A DNA stretch of 64,000 nt from Gammaproteobacteria bacterium (lineage in GTDB: Bacteria; Pseudomonadota; Gammaproteobacteria; Eutrophobiales; Eutrophobiaceae), in NCBI GenBank assembly GCA_965261165.1, contig OZ253445.1, positions 845,987 through 909,986 on the forward strand. The letters are read 5' to 3'. The notes below the pieces were generated by a model. That model searched no databases. It was not told the origin of the DNA and saw nothing but the letters and a program-made list of their open reading frames with translations. This document shows positions 15,029 through 64,000 of this stretch, in pieces. Position numbers and translations under genes: made by a program. Position 1 is the stretch's first letter. The number at the start of each line of letters is the position of its first letter.

Positions 15029-16537
15029 TCAGACACAATTATTTCTGTCTAAGCGCCGATAACTGATGGCTTCACTCAAATGAGTTGAGTCTATTGATGC
15101 TGCGCCTGTTAAATCAGCAATAGTTCGGGCAACTTTTAGGATACGATGTATGGCTCTAGCAGATAAGCCCAAACGACCTATTGCAGTATCAAGTAATTGT
15201 GATCCGACATCATCAATCTTGCAATATTTATCCACCTCCTTATTGGTAAGCTTATGGTTGGCCTTTCCCGATCTATTCAATTGCAATTGGTAAGCCTCGG
15301 TAACGCGTTGTTGTACGGTACGGCTATTTTCAATATTTTGATTTTGACGAAAGATTTCTTTCGGTACTTTTGCTACTTCGATGTGTATATCAATTCTATC
15401 CAGTAGTGGGCCTGATATTTTTTGTCGGTAACGACGGACTTGATCTTCCGTACAATGGCAACGACCATCTGTATCGCCAAGATAGCCACAGGGGCAAGGG
15501 TTCATTGCTGCGATGAGTTGGAACTGTGCGGGAAACTCGGCTTGATTTGCAGCACGTGAAATCACAATGCGCCCAGACTCTAAAGGTTCCCTTAATACTT
15601 CCAACACACGGCGATCAAATTCCGGTAATTCGTCTAGGAACAATACGCCATGATGTGCCAGAGAAATTTCCCCTGGGCGTGGATGACTGCCACCACCAAC
15701 CAATGCTACACCGGAGGCAGTATGATGTGGGTGTCTTATCGGCCGTTGCCTCCATGTTTCCGGATCGAACCCCTGACTGCTAATTGAGGTTACTGCTGCA
15801 GATTCCAATGCCTGTGATTCTGTCATCGGCGGTAAGATACCGGGCAGTCGTTCTGCCAACATGGTTTTTCCCGTCCCCGGTGGACCAATCATGATGAGAT
15901 TATGACCGCCCGCCGCCGCAACCTCTAATGCGCGTTTAGCATGATTCTGAGCACGGACATCTGAGAAATCAAAGTCACTGTAGACATCCTTGACTACAGG
16001 TTTCCCCGTGCGCAAGGAGATTTTTTCATTTCCATGAATATGCGAACAAACCTCCATCAGGTGTGTTGCTGGATAAATCTCTACATCAGAAACAAGTGCT
16101 GCCTCATCTGCATTCTGGGTAGGTAATATCAGTTTGTGTTTTTGCTGTGAGCAGGCATAAGCAAAAGGAATTACACCCTTCATGGCACGAAGTTCCCCGG
16201 TTAAGGCAAGTTCACCAGAAAATTCATATTGTTCCAGTGGCTCTTTAGGTATTTGTCCTGATGCAACGAGGATCCCCATGGCAATGGCCAGATCAAAACG
16301 TGCTCCATCTTTGGGTAAATCGGCAGGCGCAAGATTGATGGTGATTCGGCCTAGCGGAAATTCAAAATGGTTGTTTAGTATAGCGCTGCGAACTCTGTCT
16401 TTACTTTCTTTAACCGCCGCTTCGGGCAATCCAACGATAGAAAGACTGGGAAGCCCTCGCGTGATGTGAACTTCTATGGTGATCAGTGGTGCTTGAATAC
16501 CGACTTGCGCACGACTATAGGTGATTGCGATGCTCAT
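15029..16537 (-). CDS. comM: YifB/ComM-family Mg-chelatase-like AAA+ ATPase
   Basis: 502 aa; Walker A GPPGTGKT, Walker B, and the C-terminal Mg-chelatase subunit ChlI-like region. Confidence 0.85.
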   Translation of the reverse strand: MSIAITYSRAQVGIQAPLITIEVHITRGLPSLSIVGLPEAAVKESKDRVRSAILNNHFEFPLGRITINLAPADLPKDGARFDLAIAMGILVASGQIPKEPLEQYEFSGELALTGELRAMKGVIPFAYACSQQKHKLILPTQNADEAALVSDVEIYPATHLMEVCSHIHGNEKISLRTGKPVVKDVYSDFDFSDVRAQNHAKRALEVAAAGGHNLIMIGPPGTGKTMLAERLPGILPPMTESQALESAAVTSISSQGFDPETWRQRPIRHPHHTASGVALVGGGSHPRPGEISLAHHGVLFLDELPEFDRRVLEVLREPLESGRIVISRAANQAEFPAQFQLIAAMNPCPCGYLGDTDGRCHCTEDQVRRYRQKISGPLLDRIDIHIEVAKVPKEIFRQNQNIENSRTVQQRVTEAYQLQLNRSGKANHKLTNKEVDKYCKIDDVGSQLLDTAIGRLGLSARAIHRILKVARTIADLTGAASIDSTHLSEAISYRRLDRNNCV

Positions 16538-35631: not shown

Positions 35632-35708
35632 TGGTGGCTATGGGTAGACTTGAACTACCGACCCCAGCGTTATGAGTGCTGTGCTCTAACCAGCTGAGCT
35701 ACATAGCC
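35632..35708 (-). tRNA. tRNA-Met (CAT anticodon, elongator type)
   Basis: The reverse complement GGCTATGTAGCTCAGCTGGTTAGAGCACAGCACTCATAACGCTGGGGTCGGTAGTTCAAGTCTACCCATAGCCACCA folds as a cloverleaf with anticodon CAT and encoded CCA; close to E. coli elongator tRNA-Met. Confidence 0.85.
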
Positions 35709-54867: not shown

Positions 54868-57800
54868 ATGAACAGCAAATTCTTTACCAACTGCCAGGAA
54901 AACACCTTATTCAACAAACTTGAAGGCATTTTTCAGCACAACCAAAGCATCAATAATTTTGATGTTCTGGTCGGTTATTTCCGCTCTTCAGGTTATTTCA
55001 AACTGCGACCATTGCTGGAAAATGTAGCCCACATCCGCATTCTGGTGGGTATCGATGTCGATAAAATAACCACACAAATGCACGCGGATGGATTAGCCTT
55101 ATTCAATGGAGACCGCGAAAAAACCATCAAAGACTGGCAGAAGAAATTCAGCACTGATGTTCAAGAAGCTAATTATGAACAACAAACCGAGCAGGGCATT
55201 GTGCAGTTTATTGCGGATATAAAAACCAAAAAAGTGCAAATCAAAGCACATCCGAGCCGCGCCATTCACGCCAAGATATATATTTTTCGCCCCGATGATT
55301 ACAACCCGCATAAAGGCGGCAGTGTGATTACCGGCTCGTCAAACCTCACCGATGCCGGACTCGGGACAGGAAGCAGTTCTAATTACGAATTTAATGTGTT
55401 GTTAAACGATTATAACGATATTCAATTCGCCACTGCCGAGTTCGAAAAATTATGGCAGGAAGGCATAGAAGTACTGCCACAAGTCGCCGAAGACAGCCTC
55501 AAAAAAACCTATTTAGCCGATAACATCACGCCCTATGAACTGTATTTGAAATGCCTGATTGAATATTTTGGTGCGGAAATTGAATTTGACCCGAACTCCA
55601 TTAAAGACTTGCCCGCTGACTTCAAACGCCTGTCCTATCAAATGGATGCGGTGAATGAAGGCTGGCAAATGCTAAAAAAACACAATGGGTTTTTTCTCGC
55701 CGATGTGGTGGGCCTGGGCAAAACCGTTATTGCTGTTTTAATTGCGCGTCAGTTTTATTACCACAATGGCTATCCTGATTATCGGTCTAAAATTTTATTG
55801 GTGATTCCACCAGCATTGAAACAAAACTGGGTCGATACCTTAAAAAGTTTTAGCATTGATGATGCTTTTAAGATTATTACCAACGGCAGTTTGCACAAGA
55901 TTAGCAACGCCAAAGACTATGACATGGTCATTGTCGATGAGGCACATAAATTTCGCAACGATAGCGCAGAAGCTTACGACCAATTACAACGCATTTGCAA
56001 AACCAAAACCGAACACGATAAGGGCAAGGGCGGCAGAGATAAAAAAGTGATGCTCATTTCCGCCACGCCGCTGAATAATCGCCCTGATGATTTATACAAC
56101 CAGATTTTATTGTTCCAAGACGGCAACAACTCAACGCTTGATTTCCCACTGGGCAGTTTCTTTAGCAAAGCAAAAAAAGAATATCAAGATATTTTGAAGC
56201 TGGCGGATAAACATCAAGCCGGGCAAAAAACAGCAGCACTGTATGAAAAAATCCGCGCAAGAGTCATTGCTCCGCTTATGGTGCGCCGAACCCGTACTGA
56301 TTTATTGGCAAATAAGCGTTACCAACAAGATTTGCTGGAACATGGCGTTGTGTTCCCCAAAACAACCCCGCCAAAACCCGTGTATTGTCAACTGGAGGCA
56401 GGATTAGAAAAATTATACGATAACACCGTCAAAAAAATAGATAACAAACATCGAAATAAAAGCGGCTTACTGCATACCCGCTACCGTGCCTTGCATTACC
56501 TAAAGCCTGAACTCAAACAACAATACACAAGAGCAGATTTTATTGCTGATCGCTTGGTCGGCATTATGAAAACACTATTGCTGAAAAGAATGGACAGCAG
56601 TTTTTATGCCTTTGGGCAAACCTTGGGGCGTTTTATCAGATCTTCTGAAGCTATGTTAAAGATGATTGACAACAATAAAATCATTATCGCGCCAAATCTT
56701 GATGTAAATAGTTATATATTGGACGGCAACGAAGACGAGTTAATGGAAGTAATTGCCACTGAAAGTCTGACCGACCCCAGCATTATTGTGTGTTGCCGTG
56801 ATGATTTTGAAGCTGGTTTTATTGATGGCATCAAACACGACTATGCCCTGTTAAAAACCATGAAATCGGACTGGGACAATATAACTGAAGAAATCGGCGA
56901 TCCAAAATTGCATGAGTTTTTAACCCAACTACCAAATTTTTTAGACAAACAAAACAATCCACAGCAGAAAATCGTGCTGTTTACCGAAAGCACCGACACC
57001 ATGCGCTATCTGACAGCGGAAATAGAACAAACCAAATACGGCGAGAAAACGCTCAGCGTCAATGCTCAAAACCGCAATCAACTCAAGCAAGCCATTGCAC
57101 AGGATTTTGATGCCAATATAGATGCCGCAGACAAGCTAAATAGCCATCAAATTCTCTTAACCACAGATGTATTAGCCGAGGGCGTGAATCTGCACCGAGC
57201 CAACACGGTGATCAATTATGATACGCCGTGGAATGCCACCAAACTGATGCAACGCATCGGCCGGGTCAACCGTATCGGACAAACCGCCAGCCATATCTTT
57301 GTCTATAACTTCTATCCAACCGCACAAATTGACGATGATATTGCGCTACGAAGAAGAGCACTGATTAAACTACAAGCCTTTCACTCGGCCCTAGGCGAAG
57401 ACTCACAAATTTATTCAACCGATGAAAAAGTCGATACATTCGGTATATTTGATGAAAATATCAAAGAAGAAGTGAATGAAACCATCCCGTTTTTAGAAGA
57501 AATACGGCAGTTCAGGAAAAATGACCCAGCCGCCTATAAACGCATCAAGGGGTTGCCGAGCAAGGTCAGAAATGCAGTAAAAAATACCGCCCATCAAGGC
57601 GGCGCCCTGGTTTTTGCGCGCACCGAAGGCAAGGGCAGCAGTCGGTTTTATGTGGTAAAACCTGAACTAGACAATGCCAGCAATGAAAATAACATTGCCC
57701 CTTTTATTAAAACCTACAGCTTTATTCAAACCGCCAAATTATTAAGATGCAGCCCCGACACCCAAGCGACAAAATTACCCGAACAACACCACAGCCAAGT

Positions 57801-58194
57801 AGTATCGGCATTAGATAAATTCAAGCAGGAAACAGCACAAGACATTGTCAATGAAAATCAAAATAAAACCTTATCCACGACAGAAAAAAAGGCGATTCGC
57901 TTTCTAAAAGCAATGTTAGCCCTCTCCGAAATCAATGCCGCCAATGACGCGGAACCAGACAAAATAAAGCTGGCAATCGAACAAATTAAACAGAAACGCT
58001 TTCAAAACCTAAGCAGAGACATCAACAAATTAAGTAAAAACACTAAGGAAATAAAGCCAATTGTGGTATTGGAAAGAACCTTGAACATCATTCAGAAATA
58101 TGACCTTAACCGCCATATAGAAGATAACCCAGAGCAAGCAAAAAAACCTAAAAACACCCAGCCAACCATCGTCATTTCGCAATCCTACACCTAA
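54868..58194 (+). CDS. phospholipase-D-family (single HKD) nuclease domain fused to an SNF2-family helicase with a long C-terminal extension
   Basis: 1108 aa. HKD motif HAKIYIFRPDD...GSSNLT at about 55267-55340. SNF2 motif I LADVVGLGKTVIA (55711-55725), DEAH box MVIVDEAHKF (55934-55948), motif VI QRIGRVNRIGQ. A ~280-aa C-terminal tail of unknown function. Confidence 0.85.
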   Translation: MNSKFFTNCQENTLFNKLEGIFQHNQSINNFDVLVGYFRSSGYFKLRPLLENVAHIRILVGIDVDKITTQMHADGLALFNGDREKTIKDWQKKFSTDVQEANYEQQTEQGIVQFIADIKTKKVQIKAHPSRAIHAKIYIFRPDDYNPHKGGSVITGSSNLTDAGLGTGSSSNYEFNVLLNDYNDIQFATAEFEKLWQEGIEVLPQVAEDSLKKTYLADNITPYELYLKCLIEYFGAEIEFDPNSIKDLPADFKRLSYQMDAVNEGWQMLKKHNGFFLADVVGLGKTVIAVLIARQFYYHNGYPDYRSKILLVIPPALKQNWVDTLKSFSIDDAFKIITNGSLHKISNAKDYDMVIVDEAHKFRNDSAEAYDQLQRICKTKTEHDKGKGGRDKKVMLISATPLNNRPDDLYNQILLFQDGNNSTLDFPLGSFFSKAKKEYQDILKLADKHQAGQKTAALYEKIRARVIAPLMVRRTRTDLLANKRYQQDLLEHGVVFPKTTPPKPVYCQLEAGLEKLYDNTVKKIDNKHRNKSGLLHTRYRALHYLKPELKQQYTRADFIADRLVGIMKTLLLKRMDSSFYAFGQTLGRFIRSSEAMLKMIDNNKIIIAPNLDVNSYILDGNEDELMEVIATESLTDPSIIVCCRDDFEAGFIDGIKHDYALLKTMKSDWDNITEEIGDPKLHEFLTQLPNFLDKQNNPQQKIVLFTESTDTMRYLTAEIEQTKYGEKTLSVNAQNRNQLKQAIAQDFDANIDAADKLNSHQILLTTDVLAEGVNLHRANTVINYDTPWNATKLMQRIGRVNRIGQTASHIFVYNFYPTAQIDDDIALRRRALIKLQAFHSALGEDSQIYSTDEKVDTFGIFDENIKEEVNETIPFLEEIRQFRKNDPAAYKRIKGLPSKVRNAVKNTAHQGGALVFARTEGKGSSRFYVVKPELDNASNENNIAPFIKTYSFIQTAKLLRCSPDTQATKLPEQHHSQVVSALDKFKQETAQDIVNENQNKTLSTTEKKAIRFLKAMLALSEINAANDAEPDKIKLAIEQIKQKRFQNLSRDINKLSKNTKEIKPIVVLERTLNIIQKYDLNRHIEDNPEQAKKPKNTQPTIVISQSYT

Positions 58195-58254
58195 GCCGTC
58201 ATCCCACTAATCCATATCTGTCACTCCCGCACCGCCCCGTCATTCCTGCGAAAG

Positions 58255-58403
58255 AGACTGTGCAAGAAACCCAACGTTCGTCATTCTTAACCCCCTAGCC
58301 CCCTTATCAGGGGGGAATTGAGTGGAAAGTCCCCCTGATAAGGGGGATTTAGGGGGTTGGGTTTTCCACCAGCGTAACCTAACGAGGTTTTTTACACAGT
58401 CTC
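58255..58403. mobile_element. 149-bp MITE-like element inserted in the loop of a REP-like hairpin, with a 5-bp target duplication
   Basis: The host hairpin gtcattcctgc[gaaag]caggaatccag is split. gaaag occurs at 58250-58254 and again at 58404-58408. The element's ends are imperfect inverted repeats, gagactgtgcaagaaacc versus gagactgtgtaaaaaacc (16 of 18 match); there is an internal palindrome cccccttatcagggggg / ccccctgataaggggg. Confidence 0.5.
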
Positions 58404-58550
58404 GAAAGCAGGAATCCAGTGAAACAACCAAACCGGCCAGGGTTTTCCACCATCAGTGCGGTTATTTTTCTTATTATTTCGCAACCATACACATAACATA
58501 GTACGATACACATCAAACACTAATCGTAACCCACTCAACCGGAGAGACCA

Positions 58551-58796
58551 ATGCTAAACAGCGCTCATAGAACCAATATTGTTTTAGATGAAAATGTCGT
58601 GCAAGAGGCATTAAAACTGAGCAACCTAAAAACCAGGCGCGCTTTGATAGATGCTGCCCTAAGAGAGTTTATCGTTAATCACAAACAAAACAACAGTTTA
58701 GAGGCGTTACGGGATTCATTTGGTGGCAAGAGTCCATTTTTTGAAGGGTATGATTACAAGACTTTGCGTATCAATCCGCATTTACCCGAAGACTGA
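58551..58796 (+). CDS. vapB: VapB-family (DUF2191-type) antitoxin
   Basis: 81 aa; NIVLDENVVQEALKL...RRALIDAALREFI is the DUF2191 antitoxin pattern; sits 6 nt upstream of a PIN toxin. Confidence 0.7.
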   Translation: MLNSAHRTNIVLDENVVQEALKLSNLKTRRALIDAALREFIVNHKQNNSLEALRDSFGGKSPFFEGYDYKTLRINPHLPED

Positions 58797-58802
58797 AGGC
58801 TA

Positions 58803-59216
58803 ATGTCTAAACAGTTAATATATTTAGCAGATACATCGGTGTGGATTGACTTTTTTAATTACAACACAACTGAAAAAATAGAACAATTATTCAAAACCAA
58901 TCAAATCGCATTAACACCGCTTGTCTATATGGAAGTTTTACAAGGTTCTAAAACTCAACAAATACTTGAAAAGATAGATAAAATTTTATTACAGCAAGTT
59001 TTTTATCACCTAAACGATAAACTTATTAGTTATAAGAACGCCGCACTAATTTACTCAAAATGCCGCAAAAAAGGCATTACCATTCGCTCATCCATTGATT
59101 ACCTGATTGCCCAATGTGCCATCGAGAATGAGGTTACCCTGCTCCACAACGATAAAGACTTTGTGCAAATGGCAGGGGTTATCCCAACCTTAAAACAACG
59201 GTATATCGGCGACTAA
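58803..59216 (+). CDS. vapC: PIN-domain toxin VapC
   Basis: 137 aa; N-terminal IYLADTSVWIDF... with the conserved acidic residues of the PIN fold; stop TAA overlaps the ATG of the next gene (TAATG). Confidence 0.8.
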   Translation: MSKQLIYLADTSVWIDFFNYNTTEKIEQLFKTNQIALTPLVYMEVLQGSKTQQILEKIDKILLQQVFYHLNDKLISYKNAALIYSKCRKKGITIRSSIDYLIAQCAIENEVTLLHNDKDFVQMAGVIPTLKQRYIGD

Positions 59217-62200
59217 TGAAACTATTAAACCAAGCCTATAACCAAGACAATTACCTTAATTTTCTGGCAGATCAATTCAACTTTGATAAAAACCTTGCAC
59301 CTATTGAGGTGGAAAGCAAAGAAGTCAACACTTTTACGCGGCTCGGCACCGTTACCAGCCAAGACGGCAAAAAATTACCCGTCTTTGAAATTCATATCAA
59401 GCCCAACACCCAATTAAGCAGAAACCGCGTACAGTTACGCAATCTGGTTGCCAAGCAAATTGGCAGCGAAGACGGTGCTTTAGCCGTTTATGTTGATGAG
59501 GAAAACAAACAATGGCGGTTTAGTTTTATTGCCATTGAATACCGTTTCACCAATGACGGCATTCAACAAGAGCAAACCGCCAGCAAACGCTTTACTTACC
59601 TGTTGGGCGAAAACACCCAAACCAGAACCGCCCAAGACCGCTTTAGCGCACTCAACAAGCAATCCACGCTACAAGACTTAAAAACCGCTTTTTCTGTTGA
59701 AGAGCTGAACAAGGAATTTTACGACAAACTGTATCGCTGGTATGAAAAAGCACAATGCGAAGTCGTATTCCCCAATGACGAACGCACCGACAACCACAGC
59801 CAAACCAGCCTGATTCGCCTGTTGACGCGGTTGTTATTCATCTGGTTTATCAAAGAGAAGGGGCTAATCAAGGCGGATTTATTTGATAAAGATAAATTAC
59901 AAACGCTGATTGATTACGAACAGCCCAGCAGTTTTTACAAGGCGATTCTGCAAAATCTGTTTTTTGCCACCCTCAACCGTCCGGTCACCGAGCGTAGTTT
60001 TCGCAACACAACCAACGGAGCGGCAAATAGCACCAATTATCTGGTCACCAATATCTACCGCTATCAAGATTATTTCATCGATTCGGATAAAGACAAAATC
60101 ATCGCGTTATTTGCCCAAACGCCCTTTCTCAACGGTGGCTTGTTTGAATGCTTAGACCGAGAGGCAAGCGATGCAGAAAAACAGGCTTACGATAATGATA
60201 AAACGATTCGCCCGATAGGCAGTGCCATTCGGATTGATGGCTTTTCCGATAGAGCTGATAATGAATTGGTTTTTCATAATCACCTATTTTTCAAGGACAC
60301 TATTTTCAATGACAATAAGCAGGACGATAAGCAGGATTTAGGCTTGATTGACTTGTTCAATCAATACCAGTTCACCGTTGAGGAAAGCACGCCGCTGGAT
60401 GTCGAAGTCGCCCTTGACCCCGAGCTATTGGGCAAGGTGTTTGAAAACCTGCTCGCCAGTTATAACCCCGAAACCGGACAACAGGCGCGCAAAGCCACCG
60501 GCAGTTTTTACACCCCGCGTGAAATTGTCAATTATATGGTCGATGAAAGCCTGAAACAGCATTTTCATCAGCACACCGACCTAACAGACGAGCAGATCAA
60601 TGCCCTGTTTGTTGACGCTGAATTCACCGAACAAGAAAACGCCCTCAATAAGCAACAAACAAAAGCCCTGATTTATGCCATAGATGGGCTAAAAATCCTT
60701 GACCCAGCGGTGGGCAGTGGTGCGTATCCGATGGGCATATTGCAACGGCTAGTGCTGATTTTAGAAAAAGTGGATGCAGAAAACACCCATTTCAAACAAC
60801 AGCAAATCGACAAGGCAGAACAAATCCCCGATGAAGCCAGTTGCGCCAGTGCCATAGCGGCGATAGAGCAGGTCTTTTCACAACAAAATCAGCATAACGC
60901 CTATGGCAAGAAATTAATGTTGATAGAAAACTGTATTTATGGCGTGGACATTCAACCCATCGCCATTCAAATCTGCAAGCTGCGCTTTTTTATCAGCCTG
61001 ACCATTGAACAAAGCCCTAACAAAAACAAAGCCGATAATTACGGCATCAAAGCCTTACCGAATTTAGAAACTAAGTTTATTGTTGCGAATAGTTTGCTGC
61101 CTTTGGGTGAGATGCCAAAACAAAAAGGGATATTTGATACTGGTATCGAAGAATTACAAACAAAATTAGCCCAAGTCAGGCACAAGCATTTTAGTGCCAA
61201 GACCTTAACCACCAAACGCAAATACCGCGATAAAGATAAAGACTTACGCGAGCAAATGCTGGAAGAATTAACCAAAAGCGGTGTCACTCCAGCCGTTGAA
61301 GCCAGCATGAAAAGAATCGTTCATTGGGATTTATACAATCAAAATGCAGTAGCCGATTGGTTTGATCCCAAATGGATGTTTGGCGTGGATAGTTTTGATA
61401 TTGTGATTGGTAACCCGCCGTATATCCGTCATGAATCCATTAAAGAGTTTAAGCCACAATTTGAGAAAAGTTTTTCTGTTTTTGTCGGCACTGCTGATAT
61501 TTATACCTATTTTTATGAAAAAGGCGTGCAGCTACTCAATGATAATGGACATTTATGCTACATCACCTCCAACAAATGGATGCGGGCAAAATATGGTGAA
61601 AAGTTGCGCGGCTTTTTCAAAGACAAAACCCAGCTCAAACAGATTATTGATTTTGAAGGGCAGCAGGTTTTTGAAAATGCCACAGTGGACACCAATATTC
61701 TGCTCTGCGGTAAAACTGCAAACACGCAAACCACACCCCCACTCTCGCCCAGTCATACCTATTCCCACCCTCGTCATTCCCGCCCCCACCCTCGTCATTC
61801 CCGCCCCCACCCCCGTCATTCCTGCCCCCACCCCCGTCATTCCTGCCCCCACCCCCGTCATTCCTGCGAAAGCAGGAATCCAGAGACTAACCCGCCAGCC
61901 AGTTTTCAATATCAAAAACAATTACCCGACGAGAACAACCCATTATTTAATATGGCGATTGGCGACTTATCAGCCAATGCTTACACCTTGCAGGCACCCG
62001 AAATTTTAGCCCTGAAAAAGAAAATAGAACAAATCGGCACACCATTAAAAGATTGGGATATTCGTATTAACTACGGCATAAAAACAGGTTTTAACGAGGC
62101 TTTTATTATCAACACCGCCAAACGAGACGAGTTAATAACGCAAGACCCGAAATCCACGGAAATCATCAAACCTATTTTACGCGGCAGGGACATCAAAGCA

Positions 62201-62839
62201 TATCAACACCATTGGGCGGGGTTGTGGTTGATTGCTACTTTTCCAGTATTAAAAATAAATATTGACCATTACCCCGCCATTAAAAACCATTTATTAAGTT
62301 TTTCAAAAGACCGATTAGAGCAGGCAGGAAAGAGGTTGCCAGATGGCAAAAAATCAAGGAAGAAAACAGGGAATAAATGGTTTGAAACTCAAGACCAAAT
62401 CGGCTATTACGAAGAATTTGCGAAGGAAAAGATTGTTTATAATGATATTACTAACAAGCTCTCTTTTTCATTGTCAGAGGCTGGTGAATATTTTAACAAT
62501 ACTGTCTATTTTGTTGCTAACAACAATGACATTCTTTTTCAGTTAGCGGTTCTTAACTCTAATTTAATCGACTGGTATTACAAACAAATATCAGTTCAAT
62601 TAGGGGCTGGAACTGTAAGAATGTTTAGTATTTATGTTGAACAACTCCCCATCCCGCAAATATCAAAACCAGCACAACAACCGTTTATAGCCTTAGTCGA
62701 TAAAATCCTCACCGCTAAACAACAGGGGCAAGACACCCGCACACTGGAAACCCAAATCGACCAGATGGTATATCAACTTTATGACCTCACCGACGATGAG
62801 ATTGGCATTATTGAGAATAGAAAATGTATGACAATATGA
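59216..62839 (+). CDS. MmeI/PglX-family gamma-class N6-adenine DNA methyltransferase with N-terminal nuclease-like and C-terminal target-recognition domains (Type IIL/IIG RM, BREX PglX or DISARM DrmMI-like)
   Basis: 1207 aa. The helical-domain motifs SLIRLLTRLLFIWFIKEKGLI, LFFATLN and PFLNGGLFE parallel those of MmeI. Motif X ...FYTPREIV; motif I DPAVGSGAYP; motif IV GNPPYI (61412-61423). The N-terminal YVD...IEYR aligns with the MmeI catalytic FVD...IEMK, with Lys replaced by Arg. Confidence 0.85.
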   Translation: MKLLNQAYNQDNYLNFLADQFNFDKNLAPIEVESKEVNTFTRLGTVTSQDGKKLPVFEIHIKPNTQLSRNRVQLRNLVAKQIGSEDGALAVYVDEENKQWRFSFIAIEYRFTNDGIQQEQTASKRFTYLLGENTQTRTAQDRFSALNKQSTLQDLKTAFSVEELNKEFYDKLYRWYEKAQCEVVFPNDERTDNHSQTSLIRLLTRLLFIWFIKEKGLIKADLFDKDKLQTLIDYEQPSSFYKAILQNLFFATLNRPVTERSFRNTTNGAANSTNYLVTNIYRYQDYFIDSDKDKIIALFAQTPFLNGGLFECLDREASDAEKQAYDNDKTIRPIGSAIRIDGFSDRADNELVFHNHLFFKDTIFNDNKQDDKQDLGLIDLFNQYQFTVEESTPLDVEVALDPELLGKVFENLLASYNPETGQQARKATGSFYTPREIVNYMVDESLKQHFHQHTDLTDEQINALFVDAEFTEQENALNKQQTKALIYAIDGLKILDPAVGSGAYPMGILQRLVLILEKVDAENTHFKQQQIDKAEQIPDEASCASAIAAIEQVFSQQNQHNAYGKKLMLIENCIYGVDIQPIAIQICKLRFFISLTIEQSPNKNKADNYGIKALPNLETKFIVANSLLPLGEMPKQKGIFDTGIEELQTKLAQVRHKHFSAKTLTTKRKYRDKDKDLREQMLEELTKSGVTPAVEASMKRIVHWDLYNQNAVADWFDPKWMFGVDSFDIVIGNPPYIRHESIKEFKPQFEKSFSVFVGTADIYTYFYEKGVQLLNDNGHLCYITSNKWMRAKYGEKLRGFFKDKTQLKQIIDFEGQQVFENATVDTNILLCGKTANTQTTPPLSPSHTYSHPRHSRPHPRHSRPHPRHSCPHPRHSCPHPRHSCESRNPETNPPASFQYQKQLPDENNPLFNMAIGDLSANAYTLQAPEILALKKKIEQIGTPLKDWDIRINYGIKTGFNEAFIINTAKRDELITQDPKSTEIIKPILRGRDIKAYQHHWAGLWLIATFPVLKINIDHYPAIKNHLLSFSKDRLEQAGKRLPDGKKSRKKTGNKWFETQDQIGYYEEFAKEKIVYNDITNKLSFSLSEAGEYFNNTVYFVANNNDILFQLAVLNSNLIDWYYKQISVQLGAGTVRMFSIYVEQLPIPQISKPAQQPFIALVDKILTAKQQGQDTRTLETQIDQMVYQLYDLTDDEIGIIENRKCMTI
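61764..61883. repeat. In-frame tandem array of ~5.5 copies of a 21-bp unit (cccaccc[t/c]cgtcattcc[c/t]gcc), ending in an intact REP-like hairpin gtcattcctgcgaaagcaggaatccag
   Basis: Units at 61764, 61785, 61806, 61827 and 61848; translated as HPRHSRPHPRHSRPHPRHSCPHPRHSCPHPRHSC inside the methyltransferase; the same hairpin sequence hosts the MITE at 58238-58419. Confidence 0.8.
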
Positions 62840-64000
62840 ATTTTGCGGAATTTTTTGCTGGTGCAAGTGGACTGGGTGAGGGGTTTATATCAGAAGGATT
62901 TAATCCAATAGCAACGGTAGAGATAAATAAACATTGCTGTGAAACATTAAAGACCCGCTCGGCATACCATTATTTAATGAACAATAATAATGCAGATACT
63001 TACAATGATTATCTTAAAGGAAAAATTAATAAAGATGCTTTATATGCGCAAATTCCAAAAGAGGTTTTAAGCCAAACGATACATCGGGAAATAAATAAAG
63101 CCAACATGCAAGGCATAAAGGACAGCATACGAGAGCAACTGGGTAGCCAGAAATTGGATGTCATATTAGGTGGACCTCCTTGTCAAGCCTATTCAATAAT
63201 TGGGAAATTTAAAAACGGCTATAAAGCAAATGACCATCGGCTTTATTTGTATAAATTTTACATCTCTTTTTTGAAAGAATTTCAACCAAAGATATTTTTA
63301 TTTGAAAATGTTTTAGGGCTTCTATCGCTGGATAAAGGAAATTTATTTAACACTATCAAACAAGAATTTGAAAAAGTAGGCTATAACATCGCCTATAAAG
63401 TATTGGATGCTAGTCAGTACGGCGTATTACAAAAAAGAAAAAGAGTTATATTGGTAGGTATAAAAAAAGGTTTAGGTATAGCGTTTAATTTTGATGAAAT
63501 GGTAGAAACAAAAAACCAATATTTTGTTAAAGATTTATTACAAGATTTGCCTCAATTGCAGGCTGGAAAACATTCAACGAAATACGCCGCTGAAACTAAT
63601 GATTATCTTAAAAAATTTAATATCAGAAACGAACAAGACAATATTCTAACGTGCCACCAATCAAGACCGCACAATGAAAGAGATTTAGAGATTTATAAAA
63701 TAGTTGTTCAGTCGTGGAATAAAGGCAAAGAAAGGTTGAAGTATAGTAAGTTGCCTAATGAATTAATAACCCATAAGAATATAAAATCTTTTTTAGATCG
63801 CTTTAAGGTGGTTGCTGACAATATGCCATATAGCCATACTATGGTGGCACACATTGCTAAAGACGGACATCATTACATCCACCCTGACATCAAGCAAAAT
63901 AGAAGTTTGACGGTAAGAGAGGCGGCAAGAATACAGTCTTTCCCAGATAATTATTTTTTTGAAGGACCAAGAACCGCACAATTTACGCAGGTTGGAAATG
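62836..64000 (+). CDS. DNA (cytosine-5)-methyltransferase (3' end outside window)
   Basis: Open frame from ATG 62836 (or 62824) to the window end; motif I FAGASGLGEGF; motif IV GGPPCQAYS (about 63169-63189); motif VI LFENV (63301-63312); ...QFTQVGN near the end; its start overlaps the stop of the upstream methyltransferase (ATGA). Confidence 0.85.
   Translation, partial: MNFAEFFAGASGLGEGFISEGFNPIATVEINKHCCETLKTRSAYHYLMNNNNADTYNDYLKGKINKDALYAQIPKEVLSQTIHREINKANMQGIKDSIREQLGSQKLDVILGGPPCQAYSIIGKFKNGYKANDHRLYLYKFYISFLKEFQPKIFLFENVLGLLSLDKGNLFNTIKQEFEKVGYNIAYKVLDASQYGVLQKRKRVILVGIKKGLGIAFNFDEMVETKNQYFVKDLLQDLPQLQAGKHSTKYAAETNDYLKKFNIRNEQDNILTCHQSRPHNERDLEIYKIVVQSWNKGKERLKYSKLPNELITHKNIKSFLDRFKVVADNMPYSHTMVAHIAKDGHHYIHPDIKQNRSLTVREAARIQSFPDNYFFEGPRTAQFTQVGN

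Follow-up and report, generated by a model that had tools for sequence, protein, structure and literature searches.

Why does a DNA methyltransferase gene carry, read through in frame, a tandem array of 21-bp units that ends in a perfect hairpin, and does this array serve the enzyme in any way? The array lies in a 64-kb stretch of a gammaproteobacterial contig (OZ253445.1), here called the window, within which all positions are counted. Its host is a 1207-aa Eco57I-family, gamma-class N6-adenine DNA methyltransferase with a TaqI-like target-recognition domain (TRD), encoded on the forward strand at 59216..62839 and assigned by Pfam, PADLOC and Foldseek. We consider it quite probable that the array is a tolerated, unstable passenger, namely a palindrome of the CGTC-1/NTS type, which is associated with Ssn nucleases, that carries an expandable array of its 5' half and was inserted in frame into a permissive loop of the methyltransferase.

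The original prediction, made from the DNA letters, had described about 5.5 copies of a 21-bp unit ending in a perfect hairpin, and this agrees with what we find, as do its in-frame translation of the array and its dismissal of an open reading frame (ORF) on the opposite strand. Tandem Repeats Finder reported a single strong array in the window, at 61764..61867 (period 21, 5.0 copies, 97% matches, score 180, consensus CCCACCCCCGTCATTCCTGCC), and the 21-bp unit has five matches at no more than two mismatches, against none in 100 shuffles. The array terminates in the perfect hairpin CGTCATTCCTGCGAAAGCAGGAATCCAG. Read arm-first on the forward strand, it comprises a degenerate unit, GTCATACCTATTCCCACCCTC (61752..61772), four 21-bp units (61773..61856) and one complete hairpin (61856..61883). 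The degenerate distal unit (GTCATACCTAT+TCCCACCCTC) is kept in every insertion-bearing allele and is the oldest of the array. Each of the four units is an 11-nt 5' arm, GTCATTCC(C/T)GC, followed by a C-rich spacer of 10 nt, CCCCACCC(T/C)C; CCCGC, as in the canonical NTS type, marks the two distal arms, which code for HSR, and CCTGC the two proximal ones, which code for HSC. The terminal hairpin (GTCATTCCTGC-GAAA-GCAGGAAT-CCAG), which is CGTC-1/NTS-like, consists of a CGTC tag, an 8-bp stem (ATTCCTGC/GCAGGAAT), a GAAA loop and a CCA(G) tail. Its 20-nt palindrome ATTCCTGCGAAAGCAGGAAT has one intact copy in the window (61860-61879; 0.02 expected) and folds as single-stranded DNA into the 8-bp stem with the GAAA loop, the minimum free energy of the 151-nt stretch folded being -7.9 kcal/mol. 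Within the methyltransferase ORF the array yields the peptide (HPRHS[R/C]P)n. The ORF on the reverse strand (61553..61921, 122 aa, ...GMTGVGAGMT...) lies wholly inside the conserved methyltransferase ORF and is spurious, a mere stop-free frame through the G-rich complement of the array. An RNA family as an explanation of the hairpin was considered and rejected: at gathering thresholds the single Rfam match in the window is a tRNA elsewhere (35635-35708), and no T-run follows the hairpin.

The segment that holds the array is an insertion and not an old linker, because orthologues show a clean empty site. Among the 120 best homologues of the methyltransferase, the insert is present in the closest ones only. 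In P0004, P0012-P0015, P0024 and many others, ...ILLCGKTANTQP (...GKTANTQP) runs straight into (D/N)FAYQKQLP..., and in the DNA alignment a stretch of 168 bp, or 56 codons, at ~61729-61896 is cleanly missing from locus L002, with the reading frame kept. The boundaries of the inserted element (61729..61896, forward strand, ~aa 839-894) are uncertain by ~4 nt, because GCCA is repeated at its right edge; it has no terminal inverted repeats, and this ambiguous 4-nt repeat is its only candidate for a target-site duplication. That the segment is an ancient low-complexity linker with no relation to mobile DNA, or else an artefact of assembly, is hardly credible in the face of these empty sites, of DNA identical to an interspersed repeat family and of the presence of the element on more than 10 independent contigs; what such a linker has in its favour is the Pro/His/Arg-rich repeat look of the segment, at the protein level only. 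The specific idea of an ancient conserved linker we reject on the empty-site orthologues.

How the element came to sit in several genes can be read from their patchwork of identities. The flank segment 61650-62100 is 97-100% identical among all insertion-bearing genes, against only 50-68% identity between the TRD cores (62250-62660) of the insertion-bearing paralogues, and other blocks diverge too. This pattern marks the genes as mosaics, and the likeliest history to fit it is a single insertion that was afterwards carried among the mosaic paralogues by duplication and recombination. As a further observation, the TRD core of the window gene at 62250-62660 is a swapped cassette that is identical in L005, with paralogue flanks 95-100% identical.

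The element is also variable in length. Writing R for a CCCGC arm (HSR) and C for a CCTGC arm (HSC), we found at least eight array alleles among ~13 close homologues, counting those with 3, 4, 5 or 7 units and one +1C frameshift. Five units occur as RRCCC (the window, P0001, P0002 and P0123), RRRCC (P0122 and P0129) and RCRRC (P0135), four as RRRC (P0003 and P0134), three as RCC (P0006) and RRC (P0124), and seven as RCRRRCC (P0128); all seven of these alleles lie in intact ORFs. P0002 and P0006 are paralogues sharing one 2.10-Mb contig, and the orthologous loci L005 and L126 are 95.4% identical over 6.4 kb, yet their arrays differ. The variants were all found in a single metagenome assembly (ERZ26693861), on different contigs of it. 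The frameshift is that of L126 (8503-8699), where one 22-bp unit has C6 for C5 and the gene falls into two ORFs, one of 891 aa and one of 291 aa that has the TRD only; it may be genuine, as a pseudogene or phase variant, or else result from misassembly, since the coverage of the contig is only 8x. This split gene is what would speak for a phase-variable ON/OFF switch, in which slippage by 1 nt in the C5-A-C5 spacer tracts would detach the TRD from the methyltransferase. We regard such a switch as very unlikely: it has a single case, open to assembly or homopolymer error, against twelve other alleles in frame, and its C5 runs are shorter than typical contingency tracts, which are longer than 5 C.

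As to what was inserted, the window hairpin has an unpaired CGTC (61856-61859), an 8-bp stem starting with AT, a 4-nt loop and a CCA tail, and on these features of its sequence we class it as a CGTC-1 repetitive extragenic palindrome (REP), of the same class as the dRS3/NTS repeats of Neisseria and the Ssn-related motifs (SRM). CGTC-1 corresponds to dRS3 in Neisseria and to RPE-6 in Rickettsia conorii, and DNA-repair genes, uvrA among them, host many of the CGTC REPs known to lie inside genes and to be translated (Di Nocera et al. 2013, PMC3733652); published in-frame CGTC REPs and Rickettsia palindromic elements (RPEs) include RPE-4, RPE-6, that of uvrA and others (PMC3733652; PMC10969869). 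The NTS repeats form a subset of dRS3. SsnA, a GIY-YIG protein of 94 aa, binds the NTS as a hairpin of single-stranded DNA and cleaves it upstream, a few nucleotides from the CGTC tag on its 5' side, and ssn genes in many phyla have SRM at their flanks (Chenal et al. 2025, PMC11893778). With the NTS consensus CGTCATTCCCGCGMAVGCGGGAATCYRG the window hairpin agrees at 26/28 positions, and the two mismatches, T10 and A19, pair together and are compensatory.

The sister genomes, which belong to the same metagenome assembly, link this hairpin to such a nuclease. The identical hairpin has 1-22 copies per ~23 kb in them (8 in L004 and 22 in L005), and copies in inverted orientation bracket ORFs of 97-101 aa, in seven tandem cassettes in L005 and two in L004; one of these ORFs, of 97 aa, lies at L005 15148-15441. 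Chenal et al. 2025 report such an arrangement of repeats around ssn genes (PMC11893778). The bracketed ORFs encode single-domain GIY-YIG proteins (Pfam GIY-YIG, 1.3e-13), for which NCBIfam has no specific model; a sequence comparison of the GIY-YIG protein with the PDB gave WD40 entries only, none with a passing stretch, and so tells nothing of its relations. The right flank of the window element (AGACTAACCCGCC, 61884..61896, forward strand), together with the CCAG tail, resembles CCAGTGACTAA, which follows the hairpin ahead of the ssn genes in L005. The associated protein is an Ssn-like GIY-YIG nuclease and not a RAYT transposase, and a REP of the RAYT type is rejected on both counts, the tag being CGTC and not GTAG and the bracketed genes GIY-YIG. 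Several further features of these cassettes deserve mention. They occupy L005 15000-20200 and L004 15700-17000, with a 24-aa remnant at L001 15350-15560; each L005 cassette includes a fragment of ~100 bp that is similar to the methyltransferase gene at its 3' end (...MVYKFYDLTDNEIGIIENN...), and further tandem repeats of 82 and 104 bp at the ssn cassettes consist of the hairpin plus the first ssn codons.

The window itself holds a second hairpin copy 3.4 kb upstream of the array (58238..58419, forward strand), which is split, as had been anticipated, by a miniature inverted-repeat transposable element (MITE). Its left half, CGTCATTCCTGC-GAAA, lies at 58238-58253 and its right half, GAAA-GCAGGAATCCAG, at 58404-58419; the MITE between them (58254-58403) is 150 bp long, has 9-bp inverted ends (GAGACTGTG/CACAGTCTC) and duplicated GAAA. 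In L005, 22-nt mini-hairpins, CATGTCCCCGCGTAGGCGGGGA, stand within the hairpin loop at 15098-15119 and 15775-15796. The hairpin loop is thus itself an insertion target, for a MITE in the window and a mini-hairpin in L005. The core palindrome of the MITE also occurs in L005, L126 and L109. Ahead of the split hairpin are degenerate CGTC arms, CGTCATTTCGC, CGTCATCCCAC and GTCACTCCCGC, at ~58170, 58198 and 58220. The first of them falls within the last codons of the upstream helicase ORF, and a decayed arm array may provide the C-terminus and stop codon of that helicase.

Might the intragenic hairpin then be a functional Ssn site? On this account it would make single-stranded copies of the gene, as they arise in transformation, conjugation or repair, a substrate of Ssn, and so limit or direct recombination beside the TRD cassette, much as NTS do around Neisseria genes. 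The NTS/Ssn system does lower the integration of NTS-bearing transforming DNA (PMC11893778), the genes are mosaic and have a variable TRD cassette that follows the insert after 350 bp, and in L004 and L005 the methyltransferase is followed, at a distance of 1.4-2.4 kb downstream, by ssn cassettes that contain pieces of a methyltransferase 3' end. In several paralogues (P0009, P0010, P0016, P0018 and P0123), moreover, a second hairpin read in another frame gives the last residues and the stop (...NNATPDLVIPAKAGIQ and stop codon), and in P0123, which carries the internal array as well as the 3' copy, the TRD is bracketed by both. The window gene has no 3' hairpin, and a pair of SRM bracketing its TRD as a shuffling cassette was rejected for that reason; nor is there an ssn gene in the window, and the association may be just a clustering of mobile DNA in defence islands. 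On balance we find a functional Ssn site distinctly improbable.

The one-sided structure of the array recurs widely and is characteristic of the family. A scan for two arms 6-12 nt apart, in one genome per species of the Genome Taxonomy Database, matched at least 120 stretches from Dehalococcoidia, Nitrospirales, Binatia, Gammaproteobacteria, Rickettsiales, Planctomycetota and others. The 141 arrays among the matches listed have periods of 17-24, most often 21 (45/141), up to 16 copies and spacers that are 78% C+T; they mostly terminate in a complete hairpin, and the repeated side is always the CGTC side. Beside GIY-YIG genes, the hairpin, read in its own direction, is preceded by 2.7-6.7 perfect (100% identical) copies of an arm plus 8-nt spacer, with period 19. 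A count at loci fetched via the methyltransferase, and hence unbiased toward arrays, gave an extra left arm no more than 30 nt upstream in 17 of 36 hairpins and an extra right arm downstream in none of the 36. The duplicated side is the one on which Ssn cuts according to Chenal et al. 2025 (PMC11893778), and half-site tandem arrays are described neither there (where 'tandem' occurs 0 times) nor in Di Nocera et al. 2013 (PMC3733652). Long half-hairpin arrays were seen in a gammaproteobacterial metagenome-assembled genome (MAG; L117 5553-5900, 16 units of 22 bp), in Bdellovibrionales (L118 2636-2820, 10 units of 18 bp) and in Dehalococcoidia (L071 2812-2980, 8 units of 21 bp). At L128 2940-3030 a different hairpin, CGTCATCCTCGCGAA(C/T)GCGGGGATCC, stands in two copies beside an NTS-type array and, by its sequence, looks like a second CGTC-tagged family of that genome.

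This asymmetry admits a bolder reading, in which one-sided arrays of CGTC arms are footprints of Ssn action and the hairpins are local engines of tandem duplication. Because Ssn accepts any insert at the loop position (Chenal et al. 2025, PMC11893778) and cuts just 5' of the tag, each upstream arm can pair with the single right arm and be cut. Repair or slippage after such cuts would duplicate or delete units of arm plus spacer, and would produce the 19-, 21-, 82- and 104-bp repeats and the whole ssn cassettes of L005. We offer it tentatively, as a possibility that we doubt at present.

The period of 21 bp invites the thought that the reading frame created it. As an origin of the period, coding selection is rejected, since 21 is the commonest period of the family (the mode noted above) even in non-coding DNA, and the same 21-bp unit, with the spacer CCCCACCCCC, stands between genes in a metagenome contig of no relation (L128). 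Coding may rather act as a filter, a 21-bp period letting arrays persist in genes. In-frame arrays in Pfam-supported genes all have this period, namely those in UvrA (L062), in the pyruvate dehydrogenase E1 component AceE (L119), in the FtsK linker (L077) and in a beta-lactamase-family gene (L041); in-gene arrays occur in housekeeping genes of Ramlibacter, Pirellulales and Binatia MAGs and read ...SRLRGNDGKSGGND... or ...VIPAPSSVIPA... by strand and frame. All five verified in-gene cases have period 21, against 32% of all arrays, which has a probability of ~0.003 if the cases are independent; the sample being small and selected, the agreement is suggestive. In-gene candidates with periods of 19, 20 or 23 have no domain support, and ORFs spanning arrays in the high-GC loci L013, L054, L104 and L105 were not counted as in-gene for want of Pfam support. 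The arrays of L102 and L116 were rejected as in-gene, as they lie upstream of the true Ffh and ClpB starts. An in-frame array in L098 has an 18-bp period and no Pfam support.

Whether the length of the insert matters to the enzyme depends on where it sits. Pfam places Eco57I at aa 572-819, N6_Mtase up to aa 837 and TaqI_C at aa 985-1146 of the 1207-aa ORF, so that the insert precedes the TaqI_C domain by ~90 residues. In an AlphaFold2 model of residues 400-1207 (49-sequence alignment, mean predicted local distance difference test, or pLDDT, 69.7), the insert region, model residues 437-494 or full-length 836-893, has a pLDDT of 26-33 and no secondary structure. It is flanked by predicted strands at model residues 427-433 and 497-501 (full-length 826-832 and 896-900), which insert-free orthologues bridge with ~2 residues. 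The insert is accordingly predicted to be a disordered surface excursion from a beta-hairpin turn at the C-terminal edge of the catalytic fold. The original prediction had seen here a REP-like element inserted in the linker between the catalytic domain and the TRD, with a copy number free to vary without breaking the frame. Its insertion is borne out by the 168-bp gap, its repeat nature by the copies in sister genomes and their fit to the CGTC-1 and NTS/SRM class, and its variation by the 3, 4, 5 and 7 units in intact ORFs; the site does lie between the catalytic and TaqI_C domains in sequence, but according to the model it is a beta-hairpin turn and not a free inter-domain linker.

This distinction bears directly on adaptive length variation, by which the 7-residue repeats would be an adjustable spacer between catalytic domain and TRD that alters specificity or activity, much as repeats of 4 residues in the middle of the type I HsdS protein determine the spacer in the EcoR124I/II recognition sequence. 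The 3 to 7 copies in intact genes, the position between the two Pfam domains and the retention of the insert in all close paralogues are what one would expect of it. However, since the flanking strands are joined by ~2 residues in the empty-site orthologues, the ends of the loop are necessarily close and its length cannot set the interdomain distance. The segment is moreover predicted to be disordered, the differences in specificity between paralogues are already explained by the divergent TRD core 62250-62660, and arrays of like kind occur in the unrelated UvrA, AceE and FtsK. An effect of loop length on specificity or other functions is therefore structurally unlikely as far as the model goes, and we rate adaptive length variation as improbable.

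The passenger reading can be put together as follows. A palindrome would have been inserted once, in frame and free of stops, into a surface beta-hairpin turn of the methyltransferase. Members of its class fold into a hairpin as single-stranded DNA; this hairpin is the substrate of Ssn, a small GIY-YIG nuclease, which binds it and cleaves a few nucleotides from the CGTC, on the 5' side. Like many of its family, the element carries direct repeats of its 5' half, made up of the CGTC tag, the left stem arm and the pyrimidine-rich spacer. Units would be gained or lost through slipped-strand mispairing or unequal recombination, which the hairpin or cleavage by Ssn may promote. As the unit is 21 bp, each gain or loss would change a disordered Pro/His/Arg-rich loop by 7 residues only. 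The enzyme would tolerate the loop, the length of which is presumably neutral to function, and the insert-bearing segment would have spread among the paralogous mosaic methyltransferase genes of the lineage.

Several points weigh against this account. The window hairpin matches neither the exact NTS string nor the SRM expression HGTCWY N0-2 YYVSBRH N0-5 WNVSBRG N0-2 RNCYNB, because of its T10/A19 stem pair; the expression does match the canonical form and the L128 copy. Structure-preserving stem changes abolish cleavage by the Neisseria enzyme (Chenal et al. 2025, PMC11893778), so that recognition of the window hairpin by a local, cognate Ssn-like protein is suggested by their co-location alone. 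The 64-kb window contains no ssn gene and only two hairpin copies. The retention of the insert by every close paralogue could also reflect selection, and the neutrality of the loop is argued from a predicted structure of moderate quality, as its mean pLDDT indicates. Finally, the copy-number variants are differences between strains and paralogues, which speak of evolutionary lability and not of within-population switching.

The catalytic motifs of the methyltransferase, DPAVGSGAY and GNPPY, are intact, type IIG-like models of PADLOC match it, and Foldseek finds that a model of its C-terminal 808 residues resembles CamA, M.BseCI, BrxX/PglX, M.TaqI and MmeI; the protein is identical to the database protein P0127. 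Its partner gene encodes a 1108-aa PLD (HKD) nuclease fused to an SNF2 helicase (54868..58194, forward strand). In L001 and L002 the two genes directly adjoin, with 9 bp between them; in the window the gap is ~1 kb (58195-59215) and holds the split hairpin, the MITE and a VapB/VapC (PIN) toxin-antitoxin pair (58551..59216, forward strand). In L004 the same interval has VapBC plus three more genes. Downstream, an ORF at 62836-63999 starts at an ATGA overlap with the methyltransferase stop and is open to the end of the window; from its FAGxxG, GPPCQ and ENV motifs we take it to be a cytosine-5 DNA methyltransferase.

The locus brings together CGTC REPs/dRS3, coding palindromes of the Rickettsia type and the Ssn nuclease family described in 2025 in one natural example. 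It combines an empty site with at least eight length alleles and with a gene for a cognate-type nuclease that lies close by in sister genomes. If arm amplification is tied to Ssn activity, such arrays offer a testable handle on repeat proliferation, a matter left open by PMC11893778, and Ssn-linked arrays would show how repeats add evolvable disordered loops to proteins. Should they be footprints of Ssn action, hairpins with 21-bp units would generate variable-length protein loops in the methyltransferase as well as in UvrA, AceE and FtsK. For annotation, length-variable, low-complexity inserts and spurious antisense ORFs are to be expected at such sites, and the array should not be read as a specificity-determining linker without methylome evidence.

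Set beside known systems, the element is of a known kind; what is new is the one-sided amplification of the half-site and the in-frame 21-bp polymorphism. It shares with NTS/SRM and Ssn a near-identical sequence, CGTCATTCC-C/T-GCGAAAGC-G/A-GGAATCCAG, oriented by a conserved 5' CGTCA, as well as clustering and, in the sister genomes and not in the window, inverted copies on both sides of small single-domain GIY-YIG genes. It differs in one compensatory stem pair, owing to which neither the published NTS string nor the SRM expression matches it, in having tandem copies of the 5' half-site, and in being intragenic and translated, whereas only 2% of N. meningitidis NTS lie inside genes (PMC11893778). 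The CGTC-1 REPs of PMC3733652 have the same tag, AT-starting 8-bp stem, 4-nt loop, CCA tail and translated intragenic copies; that study, however, has whole-REP singletons, dimers and clusters, with negligible head-to-tail dimers, whereas the window repeats a unit of the 5' half and spacer only, with copy-number polymorphism. RPEs are likewise palindromic repeats found in frame in unrelated genes at fold-compatible positions (Ogata et al. 2000, 2002, summarised in PMC10969869), and the presence/absence polymorphism of an in-frame palindromic insert, at a site predicted to be a disordered surface loop, is much the same here; RPE-1, though, is ~150 bp long with a conserved peptide, while the window element joins a hairpin of 28 nt to an expandable 21-bp array that is length-polymorphic between close relatives. 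With REP/REPIN-RAYT systems it has in common short interspersed hairpins, inverted and flanking the gene of a small nuclease that acts on single-stranded hairpins, but its tag is CGTC and not GTAG, the gene is GIY-YIG and not an HUH/Y1 transposase, and no RAYT lies beside any hairpin copy examined. In the HsdS subunits of EcoR124I/II, repeats of 4 aa form part of a rigid spacer between two TRDs and set the gap of a bipartite site. The window array resembles them as a tandem repeat of 3n bp in a restriction-modification gene whose copy number varies in frame between alleles, and it differs from them as a predicted disordered beta-turn excursion in a single-TRD enzyme.

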